From Escherichia coli O157:H7 (GTDB lineage Bacteria > Pseudomonadota > Gammaproteobacteria > Enterobacterales > Enterobacteriaceae), in NCBI RefSeq assembly GCF_013167455.1, contig NZ_CP038328.1: a DNA stretch of 64,000 nt; one strand, written 5' to 3'. A program made the position numbers. This document shows, one piece after another, positions 19,863-22,800 of the stretch. Numbering within the stretch: the first letter of the stretch is position 1; each line of letters opens with the position of its first letter.

Positions 19863-22800
19863 TGATGTGTTTACTGATATGAAAAGAGTTTAACAATGCA
19901 GCAGTTACAGAACATTATTGAAACCGCTTTTGAACGCCGTGCCGAGATCACGCCAGCCAATGCAGACACCGTTACCCGCGAAGCGGTAAATCAGGTGATC
20001 GCCCTGCTGGATTCCGGCGCACTGCGTGTAGCGGAAAAAATTGACGGTCAGTGGGTGACGCATCAGTGGTTGAAAAAAGCGGTGCTGCTCTCTTTCCGTA
20101 TTAATGATAATCAGGTGATCGAAGGGGCAGAAAGCCGCTACTTCGACAAAGTGCCGATGAAATTCGCCGACTACGACGAAGCACGTTTCCAGAAAGAAGG
20201 CTTCCGCGTTGTACCACCTGCGGCGGTACGTCAGGGTGCGTTTATTGCCCGTAACACCGTGCTGATGCCGTCTTACGTCAACATCGGCGCATATGTTGAT
20301 GAAGGCACCATGGTCGATACCTGGGCGACCGTCGGTTCTTGTGCGCAGATTGGTAAAAACGTCCACCTTTCCGGTGGCGTGGGCATCGGCGGTGTGCTGG
20401 AACCGCTGCAGGCTAACCCAACCATCATTGAAGATAATTGCTTCATCGGCGCGCGCTCTGAAGTAGTTGAAGGGGTGATTGTCGAAGAAGGTTCCGTCAT
20501 TTCCATGGGCGTATACATTGGTCAGAGCACCCGTATTTACGACCGTGAAACCGGCGACATCCACTACGGTCGCGTTCCGGCGGGGTCTGTGGTTGTTTCA
20601 GGTAATCTGCCGTCGAAAGATGGCAAATACAGCCTCTACTGTGCGGTTATCGTTAAGAAAGTTGACGCGAAAACTCGCGGCAAAGTCGGCATTAACGAAC
20701 TGCTGCGTACCATCGACTAAAAGTATGCACACGGGCAGCACGACGCTGCCCGATTGCTTTCTGGTTCAGAATAATTCGTCCTACTCATTCTTCCTCCCCC
20801 CTTTTTTAAATACTTTTTCATCTTGTTTCGGACTGTCATGTAATTCGCAAAACGAAGATAAATGTGCTAATCCATCCCATGGAATATCGCCACAATAAAG
20901 CAGGTAATTTTTTGATTTTTACGCCATGATAGAAGTCTGGAAGAAAAAGGCTTTCTGCGATCACAGTCGAGCCGGGCGGGCCAGGCCAAATGCTAAAATA
21001 AGCACATTTTACTGACTCATTTTGAGGTAACGCTATGTACGACAATCTGAAAAGTCTGGGTATTACCAATCCTGAAGAAATTGATCGTTACAGCCTCCGG
21101 CAGGAAGCCAACAACGATATTCTGAAAATCTATTTCCAGAAAGACAAAGGCGAGTTTTTCGCCAAGAGCGTTAAGTTTAAATATCCGCGTCAGCGTAAAA
21201 CGGTCGTCGCTGATGGTGTGGGTCAGGGTTATAAAGAAGTCCAGGAAATCAGCCCGAATCTACGGTATATCATTGATGAGCTTGATCAAATCTGCCAGCG
21301 TGACCGCAGCGAAGTTGATCTTAAGCGTAAGATCCTCGACGACTTACGTCACCTGGAGTCAGTCGTAACCAATAAGATCAGCGAGATTGAAGCCGATCTG
21401 GAAAAACTAACGCGTAAATAATCCCGAATTGACGGTTAACTCGGGCATTCCCCTCTCCCCTTCGGGCTGAGGGGAATGAGCCAGCGCCGCCTCAACCTTA
21501 ACGCATAACCTACCGCTCTTCATCCAGTTGTAACGCCACATACAGCAGCAACCTGTCATCAAAATTGCCCAAATCAAGCCCGGTCAGTTCCGATATACGA
21601 TTAAGCCGATACTCCAGGGTATTACGATGAATAAACAACGCCTTTGACGTTGCCAGCGGTTGCACATTGTGACGAAACCACGCCGCCAGCGTTCGTCGCA
21701 GCAAGCCGTTATTGTCCATCGCTTTCAGCCGCGCCAGCGGTCGCGCCAGTTCGTTGGCCTGCCAGTCGCCACGCAAACTGTCGAGTAACACAGGTAACAT
21801 CAGATCCTGATAAAAATAGCAGCGACTTTCTGGCATCCGCTGTTTACCCACCACCATCGTCGTTTTCGCCGTACGATAGGATCGGGCAATACTGCCAGGA
21901 CCGGTAAAATAGTTGCCCAGTGAAACGCGAAAACGCAGCTGGCCGTACTCTTTCATGCGGGTAATCAGTTGTTCAACTCGCTTACGATGATCTTCTACAT
22001 CCCAGCGCCCAAAAGAGTTCAACGCCGGTTTCAACACCACCATTTCGGTTAGCGAGACAATCGCCACCAGATTATTACGCTCGGGCGTAGTCAGCGCGTT
22101 TTGCAGTTGTTGTAACTCCGCCATTGCGCTGTCCACACCAAGCTGACCGCTGTCGACCTCAACAATAGCCACCACTCGCGGTTGATTGAGATCGATCCCC
22201 AGCCGTTGCGCCCATTCAGTAAGTGCGGGAGTATTCTCCTCTGCCTGAATCAGGTTCATCACCAGTTCCTCCCGCAAACGGCTATCCTGCGCCAACAAGT
22301 GCATCAACCGCGACTGTTCCAGCATCATTTCAGCCGTCATGCAGACCAGTTCGCCATATTTACGCAGATTCTCTGGTTCACCTGTCAGGCCAATTACGCC
22401 GACAATTTCACCTTCCAGCCGTAACGGTAGATTAATCCCTTGCCGCACACCGTGCAGATGACGTGCCACCGCGTCATCGATATCGACGACTCGTCCCTGT
22501 GAAAGTACCAGCAATGCACCTTCGTGCAATTCACCAATACGCTCACGATCGCCGCTGCCGATAATTCGCCCACGGGCATCCATTACGTTGATATTGGTAT
22601 CGATGATGCGCATGGTACGTGCCACGATATCCTGCGCCATTTTGGTATCAAGATGCCAGCCAGCCATAAGTCCTCCGTTATGCACGGCTTAGCATAAGGA
22701 AGTACGTAACGTACGGCATTGTGCAAATGCCTAAAGGATGATGAAGATGTATGGAGTTGTGGTGAAGTTCACAGATTGTAAGGAGACCCCCTTCCCGTTT

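Follow-up and report, generated by a model that had tools for sequence, protein, structure and literature searches.

The dapD-yaeH spacer of Escherichia coli O157:H7 as the probable scar of a lost two-gene insert

What has become of yaeI in Escherichia coli O157:H7, and what stands in its place? In K-12 this metallophosphoesterase gene (813 bp, 270 aa) lies between dapD and yaeH. In the stretch of O157:H7 DNA analysed here (64,000 nucleotides of RefSeq assembly GCF_013167455.1, contig NZ_CP038328.1; hereafter the window, whose positions are used throughout), dapD ends at 20720 and yaeH starts at 21035, leaving a spacer of exactly 314 bp (20721-21034). The initial annotation had measured this gap, found no plausible open reading frame (ORF) in it, set it against a K-12 gene of about 270 codons at this place, and read the locus as a clean presence/absence polymorphism. 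The gap, the K-12 gene and the polymorphism stand as described; the clean presence/absence does not. The spacer is probably the scar of a lost insert of two genes, yaeI and a second gene called X here, and the O157 and K-12 alleles probably arose from the two-gene form by independent deletions.

Comparison with K-12 showed that the two spacers are different. The left edge of the spacer, 20721-20755 on the plus strand, is common to yaeI-bearing alleles, contains the dapD terminator hairpin and is identical to K-12 at 35 of 35 positions. From 20756 the sequences are unrelated. Similarity resumes at about 20885/20886 (TATCG...), and the right-hand block, 20885-21034, is 98% identical between the window and K-12. 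The 130 bp at 20756-20885 stand where K-12 (L001:2057-2899) has 843 bp, consisting of 18 bp upstream of yaeI, the yaeI coding sequence and 12 bp downstream. The allele difference is a replacement of these 843 bp by non-homologous DNA and not a clean insertion or deletion. Neither the short direct repeats suggested for the junction nor a target-site duplication was seen when the junctions of seven alleles were read by eye, without a repeat-finding program. The only junction microhomologies are of the T-run and TATC types.

Is yaeI truly missing? A six-frame search of the window with K-12 YaeI by tblastn found no YaeI-like sequence (best E = 3.4), and no plus-strand frame of the spacer aligned with YaeI in a three-frame alignment. 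An assembly or sequencing artefact, a yaeI disrupted at this place, or one relocated in the genome deserves next to no credence. Nothing was found in favour of these explanations, and the same spacer is present in many independent complete O157:H7 assemblies, which are 100% identical to a 1301-bp query covering it. Related forms of the spacer occur in 3338 complete E. coli genomes, and no YaeI-like frame can be recovered from it. Relocation is opposed by the counts over 5426 complete E. coli genomes, the set used for all allele frequencies: yaeI was found in 2084 genomes by megablast and in 2085 by sensitive blastn. The sensitive search found no second copy in yaeI-less genomes, diverged copies being covered down to DNA identities of about 65-70%. 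The absence of yaeI here and its presence in K-12 is a true strain polymorphism.

Where yaeI is present it is nearly always in one place per genome, and the contiguous K-12-type yaeI-yaeH junction is found in 2084 of the 5426 genomes. The 130-bp segment is single-copy in 3338. The two classes are complementary, at 38.4% and 61.5% of complete E. coli, respectively. Both are old alleles of E. coli, and the one in K-12 is the less frequent. Because the yaeI-less form is in the majority, a framing that takes K-12 as the norm and O157 as the strain with a loss is misleading. Both forms occur within what we take to be phylogroup A (K-12 versus HS) and phylogroup B1 (O111/O26 versus O104:H4), a distribution that fits exchange by recombination.

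The origin of the spacer was traced through gene X. This gene, of 236 aa, follows yaeI directly in Escherichia sp. MOD1-EC7003 and E. coli GF43. The X protein ends in ...CEPVPWGIA(T/R)IKQVIF*, with the final codons of the gene passing into the sequence that lies upstream of yaeH in all Escherichia alleles. The O157 spacer at about 20865-20915 reads C*SIPWNIATIKQVIF* against the X tail CEPVPWGIATIKQVIF*, corresponding to X residues 220/221-236, so that at least 16 codons are retained. The remnant was detected by tblastn over the whole window (E = 0.001). DNA alignment to Escherichia X genes, anchored at TATCG, beats shuffled sequences over the last 40-60 nt (z = 3.5-5) and gains nothing further past about 60 nt. 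The decayed 3' end of X is placed at 20831-20915 on the plus strand; it is firm at 20865-20915 and probable for 20-40 nt further upstream. The remnant is collinear with the X C-terminus and lies, relative to yaeH, where the end of X does and in the same orientation. Its coding capacity is destroyed by a TAA within the 16 retained codons, further in-frame stops upstream and the loss of about 220 codons. K-12 shares the final 30 nt, from 20886, and K-12-type alleles retain about 10 X codons (TATC(A/G)CCAGAATAAAGCAGGTAATTTTTTGA).

Homologues of X that share 33-39% identity and lie in unrelated contexts also conserve the tail motif EPVPW..K.K. Therefore the gene is the source of the spacer sequence and not its product. 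O157 has more of the X tail and K-12 has yaeI, and therefore neither allele derives from the other. It follows that both are, in all probability, independent deletion derivatives of a yaeI-X form. The X family itself is unannotated and its function uncharacterised; structure prediction gives X a confident fold with no relative in the PDB, and the protein has conserved TCSxC and FH(S/T)xHCH motifs.

Full yaeI-X alleles exist in the slot between dapD and yaeH. GF43 is the one complete E. coli genome with X, which it carries together with yaeI. The order dapD-yaeI-X-yaeH is also found in E. albertii strains, in Pseudocitrobacter cyperus and in one further enterobacterium, with X at 56-62% identity, and Enterobacter sp. 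kpr-6 has X alone in the slot. A dapD terminator hairpin of the same type precedes yaeI or X in the module-bearing Pseudocitrobacter, Enterobacter and E. albertii loci. The X-yaeH spacer of E. coli is partly conserved in other module-bearing genera.

The outgroup state was determined from 80 loci, obtained by scanning one genome per species with YaeH. At about 70 non-Escherichia loci (Citrobacter, Klebsiella, Enterobacter and others) the dapD-yaeH spacer is 106-122 bp long and lacks yaeI. Apart from the ribosome-binding region it has no sequence relationship with either E. coli allele, and the genera without the module carry a different dapD terminator. Terminator, yaeI, X and spacer behave as one module that replaced the ordinary spacer of about 110 bp. 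Signs of a mobile element were not seen: the scar and yaeI each occupy one place per genome in nearly all genomes, and yaeI and X are the only genes of the module. Among 72,556 plasmids and 50,697 phages, gene X had no match. The pair yaeI-X was considered as a known anti-phage defence system and rejected, as PADLOC gave no match. X as an obligate partner of yaeI was also rejected, since its distant homologues stand singly in unrelated surroundings and X is alone in kpr-6.

These data bear on the opposite polarity, in which the 314-bp spacer would be ancestral in Escherichia and the K-12 type would have acquired yaeI through an insertion afterwards. The form without yaeI is in the majority in E. 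coli and is also found in Escherichia sp. E1V33, whose yaeI-less spacer is 310 bp long and whose 130-bp segment is 94% identical to that of the window. Sporadic yaeI homologues in Enterobacteriaceae likewise suggest a horizontal origin of the gene. However, the 3' end of X is present in both alleles, with more of it in O157; the tail is an integral part of X, conserved in the family elsewhere; and the O157 terminator and yaeH-proximal spacer are like those of the module and not those of the outgroups. A gain of yaeI in K-12 is thus quite improbable. Within the genus, yaeI is present in E. albertii, E. whittamii and two further Escherichia species.

The history that we favour, deletion from a two-gene form, would begin with an Escherichia ancestor carrying a module of about 1.8 kb in the dapD-yaeH slot. 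The components of the module would have been a dapD terminator of its own, yaeI (encoding a metallophosphoesterase with a Tat-type signal), X (236 aa) and a spacer of about 120 bp with the yaeH promoter, and the module would have taken the place of the spacer of about 110 bp typical of most Enterobacteriaceae. In the K-12 type, X would have been deleted except for about its last 10 codons and yaeI kept. In the O157 type, yaeI and most of X would have been deleted, leaving the terminator hairpin, at least 16 decayed X codons and the X-yaeH spacer. The events would have followed in this order. Both alleles may then have persisted and passed from lineage to lineage by homologous recombination in the flanks, which are highly conserved. 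The practical effects in O157 would be that YaeI is lost and that the U-tract behind the dapD terminator is shorter.

Several points weigh against this history. First, the full yaeI-X form is very rare (1 of 5426 E. coli), and its ancestral status is drawn from the shared remnant and other species, not from a reconstructed phylogeny. Second, E. fergusonii, E. marmotae, E. ruysiae and Salmonella lie outside the 80-locus sample. Third, the segment 20756-20830 matches nothing in yaeI, X or the outgroup spacers by local alignment, blastn-short, nhmmer or an X-family hidden Markov model (HMM); with these 75 bp unmatched, the whole spacer is not explained by one simple deletion. Fourth, the similarity between O157 and E1V33 appears higher than expected for freely decaying DNA and argues for either recent recombination between species or constraint. 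The untraceable segment is 91% identical between the two, and identity is 95% in the X tail and 97.5% in the X-yaeH spacer, against 79% at third codon positions of dapD and 83% at those of yaeH.

The untraceable segment of about 75 bp (20756-20830, strand not assigned) is confined to yaeI-less Escherichia alleles. It is rich in AT and pyrimidines and contains a length-polymorphic tract (TTCTTCCTCCCCCCTTTTTT) that differs by 3-5 nt between strains. Several identities were tried and rejected. As decayed yaeI or X, the 130-bp segment aligned at the DNA level no better than shuffles, and blastn-short and nhmmer against all fetched loci matched only other scar alleles. As X, 20756-20866 scored no better than shuffles when the X-family HMM was run on three-frame translations. 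As a repeat or mobile element, the 130-bp segment failed by its single location in each genome, also when searched in sensitive mode. Only its right-hand 40-60 nt are X-derived. The segment 20756-20830 may be X decayed beyond recognition, as X is only about 58% conserved outside the tail, or filler DNA from the deletion.

A divergent scar variant was seen in E. coli BS-04 (L093:1933-2229), one of the 3338 scar-bearing genomes. It is about 80% identical over the alignable part; its left half is rearranged, its T/C tract is extended and part of the X remnant has been lost through a 28-bp deletion.

Does the scar do anything? The dapD terminator hairpin at 20732-20752 on the plus strand, CGGGCAGC-ACGAC-GCTGCCCG, was identified by a terminator scan. 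It has an 8-bp stem with 7 GC pairs and folds at -23 kcal/mol (z = -4.8). The sequence after the hairpin is ATTGCTTTCT here and ATTTTTTTGC in K-12, with terminator tails of AUUGCUUUCU here versus AUUUUUUUGC / AUUUUUUU in K-12. A U-tract of 7 U in K-12 is thereby reduced to 2 U before GC. The O157 terminator still passes a loose terminator scan, its efficiency not being readable from sequence. This change in the tail is the one visible consequence of the O157 allele.

On the other side of the scar, the X-yaeH intergenic region (20916-21034, plus strand) is common to all Escherichia alleles and presumably holds the yaeH promoter, 5' untranslated region and Shine-Dalgarno sequence, the latter read as GAGG at -10. 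A site for RpoD holoenzyme was reported in the K-12 yaeI-yaeH spacer by genomic SELEX (systematic evolution of ligands by exponential enrichment; PMC3946193). yaeH probably keeps its own promoter in O157 because most of this K-12 spacer is retained.

Four small frames touch the spacer in an ORF list with a threshold of at least 30 aa. Three are on the minus strand, at 20717-20839 (40 aa), 20836-21069 (77 aa, the longest spacer ORF) and 20867-20989 (40 aa); the fourth is a TTG frame of 139 aa that runs out of dapD. None is annotated, and the annotation of an identical O157:H7 record by the Prokaryotic Genome Annotation Pipeline (PGAP) has no feature between dapD and yaeH, in keeping with the earlier view that the gap holds no plausible ORF. 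The 40-aa ORF at 20717-20839 was considered as a gene and rejected: the indels of 3-5 nt break or alter its frame and its Shine-Dalgarno context, the dapD terminator hairpin makes up half of it, and it carries no annotation. Internal to it, a minus-strand ATG at 20798 behind GGAGG gives an ORF of about 27 aa, several residues of which are changed in strain HS according to a hand translation of the alignment.

The scar at 20756-20915 could have been recruited as a non-coding element, as regulatory DNA of yaeH, as read-through context of dapD, or as the source of a small transcript or peptide. The identity of 91-95% between E. coli and E1V33, against about 80% at flanking third codon positions, would agree with such a role, as would the shortening of the U-tract and the GGAGG before the ATG at 20798. 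Against it, Rfam gave no family above threshold (the best, sroE, reached 21 bits against a cut-off of 51 and fell on the terminator hairpin). Folding of the scar RNA did not exceed that of shuffled sequences for either strand (z = +1.3 and +0.2), and a consensus sigma-70 site was not found in the spacer at the stringency of the scan. The length variation of the tract and the residue changes in HS speak against a peptide, BS-04 carries its deletion and rearrangement, and PGAP annotates nothing. Recruitment of the scar is therefore unlikely. A broader form of the idea takes the slot as a long-lived, recombination-shuffled polymorphism of several alleles (yaeI-X, yaeI only, X only, scar) maintained across Escherichia, with the scar functional in dapD termination or yaeH expression. 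We give it a similarly small chance; if it were true, the conservation between E. coli and E1V33 above the synonymous level would reflect selection and not recent gene flow.

K-12 YaeI scores 531 bits against the NCBIfam model NF008460 'phosphodiesterase YaeI' (cut-off 188) and 50 bits against Pfam PF00149 Metallophos (cut-off 21.5), and its N-terminus matches Tat-signal models below threshold. It is a bona fide member of the YaeI family of calcineurin-like metallophosphoesterases, and nothing in the O157 window belongs to that family. LpxG is a distant relative. YaeI scores 122 bits against the LpxG model NF033458, where the cut-off is 350, and a lipid A role of YaeI has no support from the family scan. 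The ratio of nonsynonymous to synonymous substitution (dN/dS) is 0.09-0.17 between alleles; yaeI is under purifying selection where present. Its dS among Escherichia is 0.5-0.9, versus 0.15-0.42 for dapD in the same loci, and part of this high value may come from weaker codon bias in yaeI.

Homologues of yaeI are scattered in Enterobacteriaceae and then occur, down to 44-58% identity, in other phyla. Even within genomes labelled E. coli, identity to K-12 is as low as 80-87%. It is 80-90% in 76 such genomes and 90-95% in 263, with flanks at 96-100%; individual values are 94.2% for BL21, 87.1% for D10 and 87.0% for 2009C-3133. This suggests that the divergent yaeI alleles either are old or were imported from other species of the genus. 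In E. coli strain 1506 (NZ_CP059288.1, 3696210-3697799) an IS1-like element of the IS1X2 family splits yaeI, and the N-terminal piece is separately annotated as a twin-arginine signal domain protein.

Other arrangements were seen in the same slot. In E. albertii (L004 versus L085), yaeI-only and yaeI-X alleles both occur and their YaeI proteins are 99% identical. The last two yaeI codons and the junction of the yaeI-only allele resemble the K-12-type junction, which suggests a mosaic made by recombination. In Enterobacter sp. kpr-6 the 108-bp dapD-X spacer (L089:3893-4000) retains a CAGGGAT motif that precedes yaeI in other alleles, and this X-only allele looks like a separate yaeI deletion scar. 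The slot of Enterobacter wuhouensis (L055:914-3500) holds a minus-strand ORF of 762 aa that reads as a putative molybdopterin-oxidoreductase-like protein. That of Enterobacter sp. BIGb0383 (L063:2855-3500) holds a 646-bp insert with a 57-aa ORF that carries a lipoprotein-like signal (MKKFAGFALIAVVLSTLTGC). The dapD-yaeH slot seems to be a recurrent insertion point, or cargo site, in Enterobacteriaceae.

The genes on either side are intact. dapD (19896-20720, plus strand, 274 aa) is supported by the ORF list and by the annotation of the identical O157:H7 record, as is yaeH (21035-21421, plus strand, 128 aa), a DUF3461 protein (Pfam PF11944, E = 2e-55). Upstream, map and glnD lie on the plus strand of the window; downstream, cdaR, degP and dgt lie on the minus strand. 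The order map-glnD-dapD / yaeH-cdaR-degP-dgt is identical in the window and K-12, as expected from the synteny first noted here. A second dimorphism was seen between yaeH and cdaR. This spacer (21422-21509) is 88 bp long with a strong hairpin (UUCCCCUCU...GAGGGGAA) in O157, K-12 and E1V33, and is unrelated and 53 bp long in ST131, NQ3 and GF43; it is not linked to the yaeI state.

How does the locus compare with what is known? The absence of yaeI is an ordinary, already catalogued accessory-gene polymorphism, and it opens no long-standing question. It serves as a calibration point: about 61% of complete E. coli genomes lack this accessory gene, and its absence from O157:H7 is unremarkable. In a pan-genome study, yaeI is listed among the orthologous groups significantly enriched in phylogroup A, and hence not universal (Leimbach et al., bioRxiv 10.1101/096479). 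The allele counts presented here agree with this, and the passage of that study retrieved for this comparison contains no empty-site sequence, gene X or scar. Literature searches on b0164, and on yaeH together with dapD, returned nothing relevant. What is added here is the anatomy of the scar and an uncharacterised X family, together with the proposal that both textbook arrangements derive from a yaeI-X module now almost extinct in E. coli.

Like other gene-remnant scars in bacteria, the O157 spacer contains a short, frame-disrupted, collinear 3' remnant beside a retained downstream promoter region. Unusually for a neutral scar, the remnant and the neighbouring segment exceed synonymous-site conservation across an Escherichia species boundary. 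The 2001 comparison of the EDL933 and MG1655 genomes reportedly described strain-specific 'K-islands' and 'O-islands' between K-12 and O157:H7. The present locus likewise has a K-12-only block (843 bp with yaeI) and an O157-only block (130 bp) at one backbone position between collinear genes. It differs in that the segment is very small and carries no mobility genes, and in that both blocks probably trace to one older two-gene module, with both strains as deletion derivatives and neither block as an insertion.

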